Source: a virus. Taken from it: a stretch of 37,829 nucleotides of DNA. Position 1 is the stretch's first letter, and every line of letters starts with the position of its first letter. The position numbers and the translations under genes were made by a program. Positions 8,727 to 18,151 of the stretch are shown here, in pieces. The stretch covers positions 1-37,829 of IMG/VR virus record IMGVR_UViG_3300045988_187455, one strand, 5' to 3'. The notes under the pieces were generated by a model. It searched no databases, was not told the origin of the DNA, and was given only the letters and a program-made list of their open reading frames with translations.

Positions 8727-9231
8727 TGATGTTGAATTAATTAAAGAAATGTTACAAATGCAAGCTAAACTCGATAAAGCAATCATGGATGAGTATGGAT
8801 TAGACAAGATTGATGAAGAGAAGTTATGTTTTGCTATTCTAGATGAAGTCGGTGAATTGACTCATGAATTAAAAGGAAACTGGTGTTGGTGGAAGAAAAC
8901 GCAAGCTCCTGTTGATGATAATAAGGTGCTAGGTGAATTAGTTGATATTTGGCATTTCGTATTAAGCTGGCAGAATCATTTCAATCACGGAGAAAAAGGG
9001 ATTGAAAATACTTGTATGGTTAAAAGAAATTCAAAAAATATATTAAACCTTATGAGAAATCACGAGTTTGGGTTAACGGTAGCTTTTTCTGATTTAGTTT
9101 CATGGAAATGGAACAAGTTGGAAAGATTAACCGCAATAACTGAATACCTAGGTTTCACGATTGAGCGTGTTTATGAAGCTTATTGTAGCAAGAACAAAAT
9201 CAACTATCAGAGATTGAAGGAGTGGTATTAA
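8716..9231 (+). CDS. Dimeric dUTPase / MazG-like nucleotide pyrophosphohydrolase (tentative)
   Basis: All-helical; EVGELTHELKGNWCWWKK..ELVDIWHFVLSW pattern. Confidence 0.5.
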   Translation: MKNSDVELIKEMLQMQAKLDKAIMDEYGLDKIDEEKLCFAILDEVGELTHELKGNWCWWKKTQAPVDDNKVLGELVDIWHFVLSWQNHFNHGEKGIENTCMVKRNSKNILNLMRNHEFGLTVAFSDLVSWKWNKLERLTAITEYLGFTIERVYEAYCSKNKINYQRLKEWY

Positions 9232-9494
9232 TGTGGATTAGAAGTCAAAACAGAAAGATTTTAACAGAGATTCATGATGTAGAAATTGATAGTGTTAATC
9301 AAATATGGGGTAGTGGGTCTTTTGTCGGCGAATATTCAACCGAAGAAAAAGCTTTAAAAGTTTTAGATGAGATTCAAGCAATTGTTGAAAGCAAGCAGTT
9401 TTGTGTGGTTGATAATGTAGATTTTGGAAATTACGTACTGCATAATGGTGTTCAAGTTTATCAAATGCCACAAGATTGGGAGGTAGAAATATGA
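9231..9494 (+). CDS. Hypothetical protein
   Basis: AAGGAG + 8 nt + ATG 9231 (TAATG overlap). Confidence 0.65.
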   Translation: MWIRSQNRKILTEIHDVEIDSVNQIWGSGSFVGEYSTEEKALKVLDEIQAIVESKQFCVVDNVDFGNYVLHNGVQVYQMPQDWEVEI

Positions 9495-10714: not shown

Positions 10715-10889
10715 CAAGCGTGAGAAACAATGGGAAGAATTAAGAAAAAAGAATCCAAAATTAGCAGTGGAGTATTCAAGAATTTACATCACTATGGATA
10801 AAGCTCAAAAACATTTTAATAATTTTAAAAAAGAATGTAACGATTGGCTAGATAACATTTATAAGTTGGAGATGGAACAACATGAATAA
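10707..10889 (+). CDS. Hypothetical protein
   Basis: 60-aa ORF, overlapping junctions. Confidence 0.55.
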   Translation: MNNKREKQWEELRKKNPKLAVEYSRIYITMDKAQKHFNNFKKECNDWLDNIYKLEMEQHE

Positions 10890-14169: not shown

Positions 14170-14492
14170 GTACATATGAAGAAGTTAAAAAACATTTTCT
14201 ATGCGAATGTCAATCTTATACATACTATGAGCAAAAGATAGCAGAGCTACAAAGGGATGAAGCAATTTATCCATTAAAAGCCGAGCTATTCTTGGCTCAT
14301 GCAGATTATGCAAGAAGAATGAATTATGTAAAAGACAAATTAAGCCAACTTGATGATACGACTCGAGCCATGATTGAGTATAGATATATAAAGGGATTCA
14401 GTGCAGAAAAGACATCTAATATTGTAGGTTATGCACGAGAAGAGATTCCAAGAAAAATAAATAAGAACTTGAAGAAAGTGCTCACAATGTGA
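14166..14492 (+). CDS. Late-gene transcriptional regulator (sigma-70 region 4 / ArpU-RinA-like)
   Basis: C-terminal LDDTTRAMIEYRYIKGFSAEKTSNIVGYAREEIPRKINKNLKK HTH; position just upstream of the packaging genes. Confidence 0.6.
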   Translation: MSTYEEVKKHFLCECQSYTYYEQKIAELQRDEAIYPLKAELFLAHADYARRMNYVKDKLSQLDDTTRAMIEYRYIKGFSAEKTSNIVGYAREEIPRKINKNLKKVLTM

Positions 14493-14501
14493 GCATTTTT
14501 T
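14480..14501 (+). terminator. Rho-independent terminator ending the early/middle operon
   Basis: GCTCAC-AAT-GTGAGC hairpin followed by ATTTTTT. Confidence 0.6.
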
Positions 14502-14503
14502 CA

Positions 14504-14512
14504 TGTAATAAT
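14504..14512 (+). promoter_or_regulatory. Extended -10 promoter element (TGtAATAAT) for the tRNA-like gene
   Basis: TGnAATAAT ends 6 nt before position 14519, the predicted mature 5' end. Confidence 0.4.
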
Positions 14513-14518
14513 TGTTTT

Positions 14519-14594
14519 AGCAGGATAGAGCAGTAGTAGCTCACTAGTCTTATTAGCTAGAGGTCGAACGGTGCAATTCCTTCTCCTGCAACCA
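14519..14594 (+). tRNA. tRNA-like gene, anticodon UAU (reads AUA), initiator-like features, encoded CCA
   Basis: Manual cloverleaf: AGCAGGA/TCCTGCA acceptor with A1xA72 mismatch, GAGC-AGTAGTA-GCTC D arm, CTAGT-CTTATTA-GCTAG anticodon arm, AGGTC variable loop, GAA(C)GG-TGCAATT-CCTTC T arm with one bulge, A73, CCA. Confidence 0.55.
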
Positions 14595-14676
14595 TGATTA
14601 CAAAGCCTATCAGTAAGTCCTTCCCAAATTAGATATTAAATACCAACAATGGCATACAATTAGGCTTTGATATATT

Positions 14677-14701
14677 ACCGAGCATTTGTCTCGGTTCTTT
14701 T
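14677..14701 (+). terminator. Rho-independent terminator after the tRNA-like unit
   Basis: ACCGAG-CATTTGT-CTCGGT followed by TCTTTT. Confidence 0.6.
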
Positions 14702-14728
14702 AATAATAAGGAGGAGAATGAGGAATAA

Positions 14729-15232
14729 ATGGAGATTATTAAATTAAATATCAATGACATTACACCTTATGAAAAGAATGCAAAGATTCATACTGAAGCA
14801 CAAATTGAGCAAATTAAGAAATCTATTCAAGAATTCGGAATGAATGACCCAATCGCCGTATGGGGTAAAAACAATACCATAGTTGAAGGGCATGGGCGTT
14901 TAGAAGCCTTAAAGCAATTAGGCTATACAGAAGTTGACTGTATCAGACTAGACCATTTGACAGATGAAGAAAGAAAAGCCTATACGCTTGCACATAACAA
15001 AATCAACATGAATACAGGATTCGACATTGATTTGTTAGATGAAGAATTAGACAGTATCGAAGATATTGATATGTCTGATTTTGGATTTACCGAGCAAGAT
15101 ATTGATTGGGATAATGTAGAAGATTTAAGTGATGATTCTTATGAAGAGCCTCAACATGAAATGTGGAAATGCCCTCAGTGTGGACACGTAGATAGAAAAG
15201 AACACTTTAAAGGAGTTCGTGACAATGAATAA
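14729..15232 (+). CDS. ParB N-terminal (ParB/Srx nuclease-like) domain protein with C-terminal zinc ribbon
   Basis: ITPYEKNAKIHTEAQIEQIKKSIQEFGMNDPIAVW..IVEGHGRLEALKQLG; acidic linker; CPQCGH. Confidence 0.75.
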   Translation: MEIIKLNINDITPYEKNAKIHTEAQIEQIKKSIQEFGMNDPIAVWGKNNTIVEGHGRLEALKQLGYTEVDCIRLDHLTDEERKAYTLAHNKINMNTGFDIDLLDEELDSIEDIDMSDFGFTEQDIDWDNVEDLSDDSYEEPQHEMWKCPQCGHVDRKEHFKGVRDNE

Positions 15233-15244
15233 AACTACACCTAA

Positions 15245-16006
15245 TTGAAAATATTTCTAAGCGCATTAGAGGTGCAACGAGGTAAGAAATCATTATGTAG
15301 AATCTTAGTCGAGCAAGGCATTCAAATGAAATATAACCTTATGTCTTATTACTACCTAAGAAAGAATTTAAATGACGCATATTTCATAAAAGAGAACAGT
15401 CAATTAGTAATTATAGACAGTGGAGCACATAGTTTCCAAAAGGGTACAAAAGTTGATTGGGTAGAATATACCAAGCAATACGCAGAATTTATCAAAGAAT
15501 TTGATGAGGACAAGGTTGTAGGATATTTTGAAATGGATGTAGACAACATCTTAGGTTATGAAAAGGTATTAGAGTTAAGAAAAATATTAGAATCTGTATC
15601 AGATAAGATTATTCCTGTATGGCATAAGAATAGAGGAATACAAGACTTCAAAGATATGTGTAAGAAATATCAAGGTAAGGTTGTAGCAATTACAGGATTC
15701 AAGAATGAAGATATTAAAGATGAACAATACATTATGTTTTTGAAATATGCAAAGAAATATAATTGCAAGGTTCATTGCCTTGGTATGACAAGAAAAAAGA
15801 TATTAGATAAAGTTCCATTTGATTATTGTGATTCTAGTTCATGGGTACAACAATCAGTTTATGGGCGTATCAATGGGGTGGGCAAAGTATCAAGAGAAAT
15901 GTCAAGGACAAATAGAGAACAAGTAATGATAGAGAATTATAAGCAATTTATGCAAATGCAAGAAAAATATGAACAAAAATGGAGGAACGTGAATAAACAG
16001 AAATAA
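15245..16006 (+). CDS. TGT-superfamily DpdA-like 7-deazaguanine DNA transglycosylase (tentative)
   Basis: IIDSGAHSF, KVHCLGMT, FDYCDSSSW motifs recalled as DpdA/TGT-like; TTG start directly after a stop with no SD; see start anomaly finding. Confidence 0.5.
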   Translation: MKIFLSALEVQRGKKSLCRILVEQGIQMKYNLMSYYYLRKNLNDAYFIKENSQLVIIDSGAHSFQKGTKVDWVEYTKQYAEFIKEFDEDKVVGYFEMDVDNILGYEKVLELRKILESVSDKIIPVWHKNRGIQDFKDMCKKYQGKVVAITGFKNEDIKDEQYIMFLKYAKKYNCKVHCLGMTRKKILDKVPFDYCDSSSWVQQSVYGRINGVGKVSREMSRTNREQVMIENYKQFMQMQEKYEQKWRNVNKQK

Positions 16007-16448
16007 GACGATAGCTTTTAATGCAGTAATGTGTGCATTGTATGTTGTAGCAACGACAATTAACCCAATCGGATATGGAGTATTTCAATTTAGAGTTAGT
16101 GAATTAATGACAGTGTTTCCTGTTCATTTCAAAAAAGCACGTATCGGATTGCTTTTAGGAGTAGCAATAGCAAATGCAATGAGTCCGCTAGGCTTTATAG
16201 ATGTATTTTGTGGAACATTAACGGCAGGACTATTGTATTACCTAATTGATAGACTACCGGTACACAATTACATCAAATACATTCTATATTCATTAGAAGT
16301 AGGATTAATTATCGGTTGGGAATTACAGTTGGTATATCATATGCCATTTGTATTAACATTCTTTACTACATTTATTCCGGAAATGATTCTATGTATTATC
16401 GGTGATTTATTAGCAAAGAAATTAAAGCATTATGTAAGTATTGATTAG
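15993..16448 (+). CDS. queT: QueT-family queuosine-precursor transporter (ATA start)
   Basis: IAFNAVMCALYVVATT..GVFQFRVSELMTVFP plus further TM helices; first ATG (16029) would truncate TM1; GGAGGA + 6 nt + ATA 15993. Confidence 0.65.
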   Translation: MNRNKTIAFNAVMCALYVVATTINPIGYGVFQFRVSELMTVFPVHFKKARIGLLLGVAIANAMSPLGFIDVFCGTLTAGLLYYLIDRLPVHNYIKYILYSLEVGLIIGWELQLVYHMPFVLTFFTTFIPEMILCIIGDLLAKKLKHYVSID

Positions 16449-16461
16449 AGGTGATAAACAT

Positions 16462-16833
16462 ATGGCTATGCCAAAGAAGAACATTAATCAAAAACAATTT
16501 GAACAACTATGTCAAATTCAATGTACAAAAGATGAAATCTGCTCTGTGTTAGATGTATCCGACAAAACATTAGACAGATGGTGCAAAGAAACATATGAAA
16601 CGTCATTCTCCGAAATATTCAGACAAAAAAGGCAAGGAGGGTGTGCAAGCCTTAGAGCAAAGCAGTGGAAACTAGCTTCTAAGAGTCCTGCTATGGCTAT
16701 TTTCTTAGGTAAACAGTTCTTGGGTCAAACAGACAAAGTAGAAACGCACTTTGACGCTTCAGAAGTAAATGCAATTAATAAAGCTATGATTACAGATGTA
16801 GCAAAAGAAAGAAGAATTGAAGATTTTGAATAA
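16462..16833 (+). CDS. terS: Terminase small subunit
   Basis: AGAGGTGA + 7 nt + ATG 16462; HTH (CTKDEICSVLDVSDKTLDRWCKE) and LRAKQWKLA..MAIFLGKQFLGQTD. Confidence 0.75.
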   Translation: MAMPKKNINQKQFEQLCQIQCTKDEICSVLDVSDKTLDRWCKETYETSFSEIFRQKRQGGCASLRAKQWKLASKSPAMAIFLGKQFLGQTDKVETHFDASEVNAINKAMITDVAKERRIEDFE

Positions 16834-18151
16834 GCCTGCGCCTTTCAATCAAAAACAATTAACTTATCTTAAAAGGACATTTGATTCATGGCTTAATGTT
16901 TTAGAGGGCGGTAAGCGTGGAGGGAAAAACGTACTCAACACATACGCTTTCTGCATTGCATTAGAAACACATCCGGATAAGTTTCATTTAATAGCAGGAA
17001 CAGATACATCATCTGCACGTGTTAATATTGGAGATTGCAACGGATACGGCTTACAAAACTACTTTGCGAATAGATTCAAAGTAGGGAAGTATGAAGGCAA
17101 AGATTGTTATTACATCAATACAAAGGTTGGAGAAAAGGTTGTATTCTTTGCCGGTGGTGCTAAGAAAGGCTCAGAGAATGCAATACATGGTTATTCATAT
17201 GGAATGGCATATGTAACAGAAGCAAACCTTTGTTGCATTGAATTTCTACAAGAAGTAATGGATAGAACGATAGCATCAAGCGATAGAAAGATATTTCATG
17301 ATTTAAACCCCAAAGGCAAGAATCATTGGTATTACACAGATTTCTTGAAATATCATGAGGAGCAACAGAATAAAGATTCTACATATGGTTATAACTATGG
17401 GCATACCACCTTAGTTGACAATTATTCTTTAAGTGATGAGCAGATAAGAACGGTCTTGAAATCATACGATAAGAATAGCGTTTATTACAAAAGAGATATA
17501 AAAGGGCAAAGGGAAGAAGCCGAAGGACTTGTATTCCCTTATTTTGCTAATGATTGCAAACCTTACCTATTTAAATATCAGAGTCTAAAAGAAAAGATGA
17601 AGGAAGAAGGGAAAAGGTTTAGTCATTTAATTATTGGAGTTGACTTTGGAGACAATGGTTCGAAATATTCATGGCACTTAACAGGGTTTACAAATGATTG
17701 GGACTATATGTGGGCACTAGATGAGGGAGATATGGAGAAGTCAAACTCAATTGACGCAACAAAGTTTTGCAAAGCGTTTGTAAGATTTTATAAGCGTTGT
17801 ATTGAATGCTATGGATATGTAGAATGGATATTTCCGGACAGTGCTTCTAACACGCTAATAAACACGCTTAGAGCTTATTTCTACGCCGAAGGATTAGACG
17901 GAAGTATAATTGCACCAGTTAAGAAGAATGAGCTAACAGACCGTCCTATAACGGTTGATAGCTTACTTGTAACAGGTAGATTAAAAATAGAAGAACATTG
18001 TAAGAACTTAATAAACGCATTGAGCGAATTGGTATGGGATGAAAAAAAAGACATTCCAAAAGATGAGAACGTAAACAATATCAATGATGATTGGGATTCG
18101 TTCTGCTATACATTTATCACACATAGCAAATATATAGATTTAAGGAGGTAA
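16817..18151 (+). CDS. terL: Terminase large subunit (PBSX-like)
   Basis: 444 aa; Walker A-like GGKRGGKN, nuclease-domain acidic motifs; TTG start. Confidence 0.9.
   Translation: MKILNKPAPFNQKQLTYLKRTFDSWLNVLEGGKRGGKNVLNTYAFCIALETHPDKFHLIAGTDTSSARVNIGDCNGYGLQNYFANRFKVGKYEGKDCYYINTKVGEKVVFFAGGAKKGSENAIHGYSYGMAYVTEANLCCIEFLQEVMDRTIASSDRKIFHDLNPKGKNHWYYTDFLKYHEEQQNKDSTYGYNYGHTTLVDNYSLSDEQIRTVLKSYDKNSVYYKRDIKGQREEAEGLVFPYFANDCKPYLFKYQSLKEKMKEEGKRFSHLIIGVDFGDNGSKYSWHLTGFTNDWDYMWALDEGDMEKSNSIDATKFCKAFVRFYKRCIECYGYVEWIFPDSASNTLINTLRAYFYAEGLDGSIIAPVKKNELTDRPITVDSLLVTGRLKIEEHCKNLINALSELVWDEKKDIPKDENVNNINDDWDSFCYTFITHSKYIDLRR

Follow-up and report, generated by a model that had tools for sequence, protein, structure and literature searches.

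The stretch of viral DNA analyzed here (IMG/VR record IMGVR_UViG_3300045988_187455, positions 1 to 37,829, hereafter the window) is a complete gut-bacterial provirus of 37.8 kb, with a completeness of 100% according to IMG/VR and CheckV. On its plus strand, three consecutive genes encode a ParB-N protein (parB, 14729–15232, 167 amino acids), a minimal DpdA-type DNA-guanine transglycosylase (dpdA, 15245–16006, 253 amino acids from a TTG start), and QueT, the predicted S component of an energy-coupling factor (ECF) transporter (queT, 15993–16448). From the sequences of these genes and of their relatives, it is probable that the three genes form an import-and-insert cassette, which would place a 7-deazaguanine base into the phage's own DNA. 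An earlier note made from the letters of this DNA had pointed to three consecutive open reading frames (ORFs) on this strand, and all three were found. Modification of DNA with 7-deazaguanines is an established phage defense against restriction and Cas9, and published work centers on phages that make their own base. For phages that carry DpdA only, the source of the base is reportedly an open question, Orion being said to have none and SVST-2 to use one that is unknown. The cassette and its 100-plus relatives give a genomic answer to this question for a large set of gut phages that have not been cultured.

The product of the middle gene matched phrog_887, annotated as 'queuine tRNA-ribosyltransferase' (E 7e-39). 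A family profile of 75 diverse relatives was compared by hhalign with known phage enzymes and matched DpdA1 of Seuratvirus with a probability of 99.5% (E 5e-23), with the DSGA and HxxG...CDSSSW motifs in register, as well as gp2 of Mycobacterium phage Rosebush (97.6%) and gp7 of Streptococcus phage Dp-1 (97.5%). The motifs for which the protein had initially been placed in the tRNA-guanine transglycosylase (TGT) superfamily, IIDSGAHSF, HCLGMT, and DYCDSSSW, are all present, and the profile searches assigned it to the phage DpdA family and not to an unrelated one. D58-S59-G60, E96, D98, H127, and D196 are invariant among the 75 relatives. D58 (in DSG) and D196 (in DSSSW) align with D95 (in DCGAFT) and D256 (in SIDSTT) of Salmonella DpdA (7ui4), which serve as the general acid/base and the nucleophile, respectively (PMC10164549). 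The AlphaFold2 (AF2) model is a TIM barrel, (beta/alpha)8, with alternating strands and helices (predicted local distance difference test (pLDDT) 95.3, predicted template modeling score (pTM) 0.92), and a Foldseek search of BFVD matched phage DpdAs, including nt-1 DpdA2, with E-values of 1e-4 to 2e-28. By these comparisons, the window DpdA belongs with the phage DpdA1-like enzymes, and not with TGT or bacterial DpdA sensu stricto.

The product of the third gene, when read from ATG 16029, scored 93.5 bits against the Pfam family PF06177 (cut-off 33.7; model positions 8–140), and a six-frame match beginning at 16011 reached 97.3 bits over model positions 1–140. With this score and its four to five hydrophobic segments, the protein is a QueT-family membrane protein, as had been proposed, but the start at 16029 assumed in the same proposal is not favored. 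A TGA stop immediately precedes ATA 15993, where the queT frame opens, and GGAGGA stands 5 nucleotides (nt) upstream; no ATG, GTG, or TTG was found in this frame ahead of ATG 16029. The QueT proteins of sister cassettes have 13–18 K/R-rich residues ahead of the conserved ALYV of helix 1, and the window protein has 15 when translated from ATA and 2 when translated from ATG. The ATA-start arrangement is identical in three close relatives, in which codon 2 differs synonymously. Because of the spacing of the Shine–Dalgarno (SD) sequence and the N-termini of the homologs, and because the first helix is complete only in this way, queT more likely spans 15993–16448 (151 amino acids) than the shorter frame from ATG 16029 (139 amino acids). 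QueT/QrtT transporters are reported to carry preQ1, and some of them also queuine and queuosine (Q) (PMC11130926).

A profile search of the whole window record detected no QueC, PTPS/QueD, GTP cyclohydrolase I, or radical SAM gene, and tblastn of the window with the pathway enzymes of Dp-1, BCD7, and Seuratvirus returned nothing, in agreement with the earlier statement that queC, queD, queE, and folE are absent. When clustered at 90% identity, the DpdA family forms more than 1,600 groups, with 1,593 representatives at E <=0.001; the loci compared here, about 107 taken from IMG/VR and 7 from genomes in GTDB, span DpdA identities of 32–99%. The GTDB loci come from hosts of the Acutalibacteraceae, Lachnospiraceae, Clostridiaceae, Anaerobutyricum, and other Clostridia. 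Immediately 5' of dpdA, a ParB-N gene is present in 94 of the 103 loci with room for one. The gene or genes that follow dpdA were classified in the 106 loci whose downstream sequence extends for 2.5 kb or more, and the identities of YhhQ, QueT, QueF, QueC, and DUF6884 in this slot were confirmed with Pfam. The importer YhhQ/Vut_1 occupies the slot in 61 loci and QueT does so in 22; in 11 loci FolE/QueD/QueE/QueC stand there, in 4 this set is joined by QueF, in 5 YhhQ is paired with QueC, and in the remaining 3 the slot is empty. A full pathway together with an importer was found in none of the 106. In the loci L070–L073, ordered ParB-DpdA-QueF-QueC-QueD-QueE-FolE, the pathway stands in the position of the importer.

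In a maximum-likelihood tree of DpdA, the type of supply changes at least 18 times, and well-supported branches force at least three separate acquisitions of QueT. The window forms a QueT triplet with L012 and L013 inside a clade with 98% support, which also contains 37 YhhQ loci, three loci with the de novo pathway and QueF, and one other QueT locus. The only property that YhhQ and QueT, which belong to unrelated families, have in common with the pathway is the delivery of a 7-deazaguanine base. Since two unrelated importers and a synthesis pathway repeatedly replace one another at this position, there is strong genomic evidence that the slot feeds a 7-deazaguanine base to DpdA. The proposal that the phage salvages its precursor instead of synthesizing it is therefore supported at the level of gene content, the slot holding an importer or a pathway across the 106 loci. 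The accompanying remark that a transporter without biosynthesis genes is unusual was not borne out: it is the layout met most often among the uncultured gut phages of this large family, and both YhhQ genes in phages and the hypothesis that DpdA-only phages rely on salvage have already been published (PMC6884629).

Several sister cassettes depart from this scheme in their gene content. Five of them (L099, L113, L117, L110, and L094) are ordered ParB-DpdA-(DpdC)-QueC-YhhQ, with a genuine QueC (Pfam 197–209 bits) and with QueD, QueE, and FolE absent, which suggests that they salvage an earlier intermediate such as 7-carboxy-7-deazaguanine (CDG), or use QueC otherwise. In bacterial Dpd systems, DpdC converts preQ0-DNA to 7-amido-7-deazaguanine (ADG)-DNA. 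A gene for DUF6884, which corresponds to DpdC (PMC11888242), directly follows dpdA in L002 (Fusobacterium phage phiFN37, 6805–7239), L085 (3565–3975), and L110 (5812–6219), and also in L094 and L114. The cassettes that bear DpdC are predicted to yield dADG-modified phage DNA from salvaged or self-made preQ0. In one QueT-type subgroup (L075–L091), a run of 7–11 G bases separates dpdA from queT (approximately 10762–10772 in locus coordinates); runs of 8 or 11 join DpdA and QueT into one frame of 413–415 amino acids, and runs of 7, 9, or 10 leave them in separate frames. This could be phase variation, programmed slippage, or homopolymer assembly noise.

The first gene product matched phrog_620, 'ParB-like partition protein' (E 5e-52), and the N-terminal region of the PADLOC MTase_II model (E 4e-27), and scored 21.6 bits against Pfam ParB_N, under the cut-off of 26.3. 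A profile of 25 partner proteins matched the CTP-binding N-domains of ParB, Noc, and Spo0J in the PDB entries 7bnk, 6sdk, and 7nfu (E 5e-11 to 6e-10), with GH(T/G)RxxA aligned to GERRWRA. The AF2 model (pLDDT 88) was superposed by Foldseek on ParB-CDP/CTPgS and Noc structures with a root-mean-square deviation of 2.1–2.3 Å over approximately 97 residues. Its nucleotide-pocket motif reads G54-H-G-R57-L-E-A60, and G54, H55, R57, A60, and N90 are conserved. An acidic linker then leads to an H..CPxC.H..H zinc knuckle, whose CxxC is found in 82 of the 85 partner proteins. Neither a helix-turn-helix (HTH) nor a dimerization domain is present, and the PDB matches end at about residue 90–117. Based on these profiles and on the model, the protein is a ParB/Noc-type, CTPase-like N-domain followed by a zinc knuckle; the ParB/Srx-type fold first ascribed to it is retained, and what had been called a zinc ribbon is this short knuckle. 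A canonical partition ParB was ruled out, as the protein has 167 amino acids and only the linker and the knuckle after its N-domain.

An orthologue of DpdB was also ruled out, since the motif GHGRLEA is not of the DGQQR/DndB-like type, a helical C-domain is lacking, and the PADLOC DpdB model gave no match. The idea of a DpdB-like helper survives as an analogy, the window protein having the CTP-pocket motif (GxxRxxA) and the fold of a classical ParB, not the DGQQR/DndB-like domain of DpdB. By this analogy, ParB-N could well act as a helper that loads or targets DpdA on DNA, and we consider the chances of this to be about even. In its favor are the near-constant adjacency to dpdA over distant phages, the precedent of DpdB, and the fusion of the ParB-N domain to phage DNA methyltransferases elsewhere (phrog_498, PADLOC MTase_II, and Javan phages). 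In phiFN37, three ParB-like paralogues are encoded within 9 kb (772–2560 and 8922–9410); one adjoins a gene annotated as 'phosphoadenosine phosphosulfate reductase' and another is 47% identical to the window ParB-N. ParB-N domains may partner several different DNA-modifying enzymes within one phage.

The three genes are followed by those of the terminase small subunit (terS, 16441–16833; phrog_309/606) and large subunit (terL, 16817–18151; phrog_2, Pfam Terminase_3 and Terminase_6N). Since neighbors in the plus-strand order parB-dpdA-queT-terS-terL are 12 nt apart or overlap, translation of the five genes, those for packaging included, very probably proceeds as one chain. The queT gene shares 14 nt with the 3' end of dpdA and 8 nt with terS. 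Upstream, the cassette is preceded by an ORF for a sigma-like late regulator, by a tRNA gene (14519–14591, plus strand), and by a terminator-like hairpin with a T-run (14677–14695, plus strand), which was located by a pattern scan and by reading the sequence and is the predicted upstream boundary of the cassette; the ribosome-binding site of parB, GGAGGAG, lies at about 14711, just 3' of this hairpin. With these elements ahead of parB and five tightly chained genes behind them, the description of the cassette as opening the late operon is reasonable. The tRNA gene was recognized by the Rfam tRNA model (48 bits, gathering threshold 29) and missed by ARAGORN; its anticodon, UAU, lies in the loop CUUAUUA, pair 1:72 is an A-A mismatch, and CCA is encoded.

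Between parB and dpdA, a seven-codon mini-ORF on the plus strand (15225–15248; ATG AAT AAA ACT ACA CCT AAT TGA) is preceded by the SD sequence AAGGAG at a spacing of 9 nt. On its start side it overlaps the parB stop, and its TGA overlaps the TTG start of dpdA (TTGA). The dpdA gene is without an SD sequence of its own, and the agreement of the encoded N-terminus, MKIFL, with the family consensus MKIYL indicates that the TTG start is right. The mini-ORF looks like a device for coupling dpdA to parB by termination and reinitiation. Rfam searches for a preQ1 riboswitch, run across the whole window with the gathering threshold and across 14400–14800 with E-values up to 10, matched only the tRNA; the folding of the 236-nt leader was not better than that of shuffled sequences (z -1.3), and neither a riboswitch nor a promoter signal of its own was detected for queT. 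The ratios of nonsynonymous to synonymous substitution rates (dN/dS) are 0.02–0.04 for ParB-N, 0.02–0.08 for DpdA, and 0.03 for QueT; all three genes are under strong purifying selection.

The following course of events would account for the arrangement of the cassette. QueT would be made late with the terminase, enter the host membrane, and dock on the shared ECF module of the host (EcfA/A'/T), where it would import a queuosine-precursor base, probably preQ1 or preQ0, both of which are abundant in the gut. The minimal DpdA would then exchange guanine in replicated, double-stranded phage DNA for this base by a TGT-type double displacement, with D196 as the presumed nucleophile and D58 as the presumed acid/base. 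ParB-N, which has a nucleotide pocket and a zinc knuckle but no sequence-specific HTH, would probably bind DpdA and load or hold it on DNA, in a role analogous to that of the ParB-fold ATPase DpdB and of the ParB-N domain fused to phage methyltransferases. Finally, the modified DNA would be packaged and would resist restriction in the next host. As to the identity of the base, QueF in three sister loci of the same supported clade (L071–L073) points to preQ1; DpdC, an enzyme that acts on preQ0-DNA, is encoded in other sister cassettes.

Each part of this cassette has a counterpart in known systems. In Rosebush, 28% of G is replaced by dPreQ0 (PMC6884629), and its genes gp1–gp6 follow the order seen in the window: ParB-like, DpdA, supply (QueC, QueD, QueE, and FolE), and terminase. 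Both its ParB-like gp1 (hhalign 90%) and its DpdA (gp2) are homologous to the window proteins. Rosebush differs from the window in its de novo synthesis, in a DpdA of 385 amino acids (253 in the window), in a ParB-like protein of 263 amino acids without a zinc knuckle, and in its actinobacterial host. A ParB-superfamily ORF was already proposed as a 'dpdB homolog' in a study of mycobacteriophages (PMC6392294). Dp-1, whose DNA carries dPreQ1, encodes QueF, QueC, QueD, QueE, FolE, QueT, and DpdA as gp1–gp7. It is the only annotated isolate phage in which QueT adjoins DpdA, the ten other QueT matches in the phage collection being short and unannotated, and its QueT is 34% identical to that of the window. 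Unlike the window, Dp-1 is a virulent phage with the whole preQ1 pathway; its cluster lacks a ParB partner and lies at the early end of the genome, not ahead of the terminase.

The DpdA1 enzymes of Queuovirinae (Escherichia phage 9g, CAjan, and Seuratvirus) are the best-validated DpdA subfamily, and Seuratvirus also has YhhQ; in contrast to the window, these phages combine a full preQ0 pathway with YhhQ and have no ParB partner, and the direct identity is only about 25%. In the Dpd system of Salmonella Montevideo, DpdA works with the ParB-fold ATPase DpdB, which is required, to put preQ0 in DNA (PMC10164549). Some bacterial dpd islands carry YhhQ, and the DpdC of the bacterial system is shared with sister cassettes and with phiFN37. 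However, DpdB is an ATPase of the DGQQR/DndB type that carries a helical domain at its C-terminus, whereas the window protein combines a GxxRxxA ParB N-domain with a zinc knuckle, and the bacterial DpdA has 436 amino acids, with a Zn site and insertions, compared with 253 in the window. Beside the window cassette, dpdD-K restriction genes were not seen, although no search aimed at them was made. The closest annotated isolate is phiFN37, with the order ParB-DpdA-DUF6884(DpdC)-YhhQ (ParB 47%, DpdA 36% identity), in which no biosynthesis genes were annotated or matched in the roughly 6 kb that flank the cassette on each side. It differs from the window in its importer, YhhQ, in the added DpdC, which predicts dADG, in its unrelated genome type of 85 kb, and in the position of the cassette, which does not precede the terminase. 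Phage Orion has DpdA and no supply genes, and its DNA is not modified.

Several observations weigh against the import-and-insert reading. Pfam TGT (PF01702) matched none of the 75 family members and the PADLOC DpdA model gave no match; Foldseek comparison of the DpdA model with the PDB returned generic TIM barrels only, a single-sequence PDB search gave no match, and the profile match to Salmonella DpdA 7ui4 was weak (E 0.19). The structural Zn site of TGT and bacterial DpdA is also absent, with no Cys in the 57 residues after D196. Because the PDB and TGT searches were weak or empty, the link of the window DpdA to TGT chemistry rests on its homology to phage DpdA1 and on the motif alignment. 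In addition, a full-length QueT requires the non-canonical ATA start, and EcfT was detected in two of five metagenome-assembled genomes (MAGs) of related hosts, all of them hosts of YhhQ-type phages and not the window's own host. The adjacency of ParB and DpdA could partly reflect the common ancestry of phage backbones, and ParB need not be a cofactor, as the DpdA of phage 9g needs no ParB protein to place preQ0 in plasmid DNA in E. coli (PMC6884629). This last result is also the main ground for a reading, possible but in our view the less probable one, in which the DNA is modified and ParB-N is a packaging, partition, or nuclease-related protein merely syntenic with DpdA. ParB-like genes are common close to terminase genes, the upstream ParB is missing in 9 of the 103 loci, mostly in the de novo clade, and the three phiFN37 paralogues have other neighbors. 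On the other hand, the adjacency in the other 94 loci persists down to 32% DpdA identity and recurs in the unrelated phiFN37 and Rosebush, the fusions to phage methyltransferases mark the domain as one that recurs alongside DNA-modifying enzymes, a ParB-fold NTPase is required by bacterial DpdA (PMC10164549), and the gap of 12 nt between parB and dpdA is bridged by the coupling mini-ORF.

Other alternatives concern the two remaining genes. QueT and YhhQ are normally transporters for the salvage of tRNA queuosine (PMC11130926), tgt is present in each of the five related hosts, and a real QueC is absent from three, so that an extra importer could benefit the host. QueT might then be a lysogenic-conversion gene for preQ1/queuine salvage by the host, independent of DpdA and ParB. 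We regard this as very unlikely, since the importer always lies immediately 3' of DpdA, is replaced there by the preQ0 pathway, and never accompanies the full pathway; moreover, queT lies behind the terminator-like hairpin and is chained to terS and terL, which indicates late lytic expression, and it lacks a detectable riboswitch or promoter signal of its own. A function of DpdA on RNA, either host tRNAs or the phage tRNA, could be imagined from the founding members of the TGT superfamily, which modify tRNA, and from the tRNA gene 140 nt upstream of the cassette. Such a tRNA-modifying role was rejected as highly improbable: the window DpdA has neither the tRNA-binding nor the Zn subdomain of TGT, it is partnered with a ParB domain of the DNA type, and the nearby tRNA, with its anticodon UAU, offers no G34 to exchange. 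All characterized phage members of the DpdA family act on DNA, and most relatives carry the cassette at 47–70% DpdA identity. Finally, the cassette could be intact but often idle, with modification occurring only when an external precursor is present. Orion and 7-11, which have DpdA only, show no or negligible modification, and the window, without synthesis genes, would depend for its supply on the environment and on the ECF module of the host. We nevertheless consider a mostly idle cassette unlikely, as all three genes are under strong purifying selection and importer-type cassettes make up 83 of the 106 loci, which shows that the arrangement is of advantage in the gut, where Q precursors are reported to be widely exchanged (PMC11130926).

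The import-and-insert reading, if correct, extends known biology and introduces no new principle, as the strategy and all three parts were known. In the literature searched, QueT as the sole supply, the fixed order ParB-DpdA-supply with either an importer or a pathway, and the prevalence of this architecture in phages of gut Clostridia were not described. The reading predicts that QueT and YhhQ supply DNA modification besides tRNA modification, and it would tie the chemistry of phage DNA to the gut economy of queuosine precursors. The cassette also offers a small three-gene system for asking whether a ParB-type nucleotide switch aids a transglycosylase on DNA. More tentatively, ParB-N with its zinc knuckle might be a general, nucleotide-gated DNA-loading adaptor for the DNA-modifying enzymes of phages, serving in the window a minimal DpdA without DNA-binding insertions of its own and elsewhere the methyltransferases to which the domain is fused, QueT might parasitize the ECF module of the host, and the armoring of the DNA might depend on precursors from the gut community. 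If this were true, the strength of anti-restriction would be a nutrient-dependent, community-level trait.

A contig scan for the window's own host gave only relatives of 49–65% identity, in MAGs of Clostridia. Host genes for Q metabolism and ECF transport were therefore checked in five MAGs with related prophages (G001–G005, carrying L005, L007, L008, L009, and L011), in which genome incompleteness limits the counts. All five contain tgt, and a genuine QueC was found in two. The large-intestine microbiota is reported to consist mostly of salvagers (PMC11130926). If it is not an effect of MAG incompleteness, the detection of EcfT in two of these hosts of YhhQ-type phages raises the idea that the choice between YhhQ and the ECF-dependent QueT may track the ECF module of the host. 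The two EcfT-positive MAGs and the two QueC-positive MAGs are different ones.

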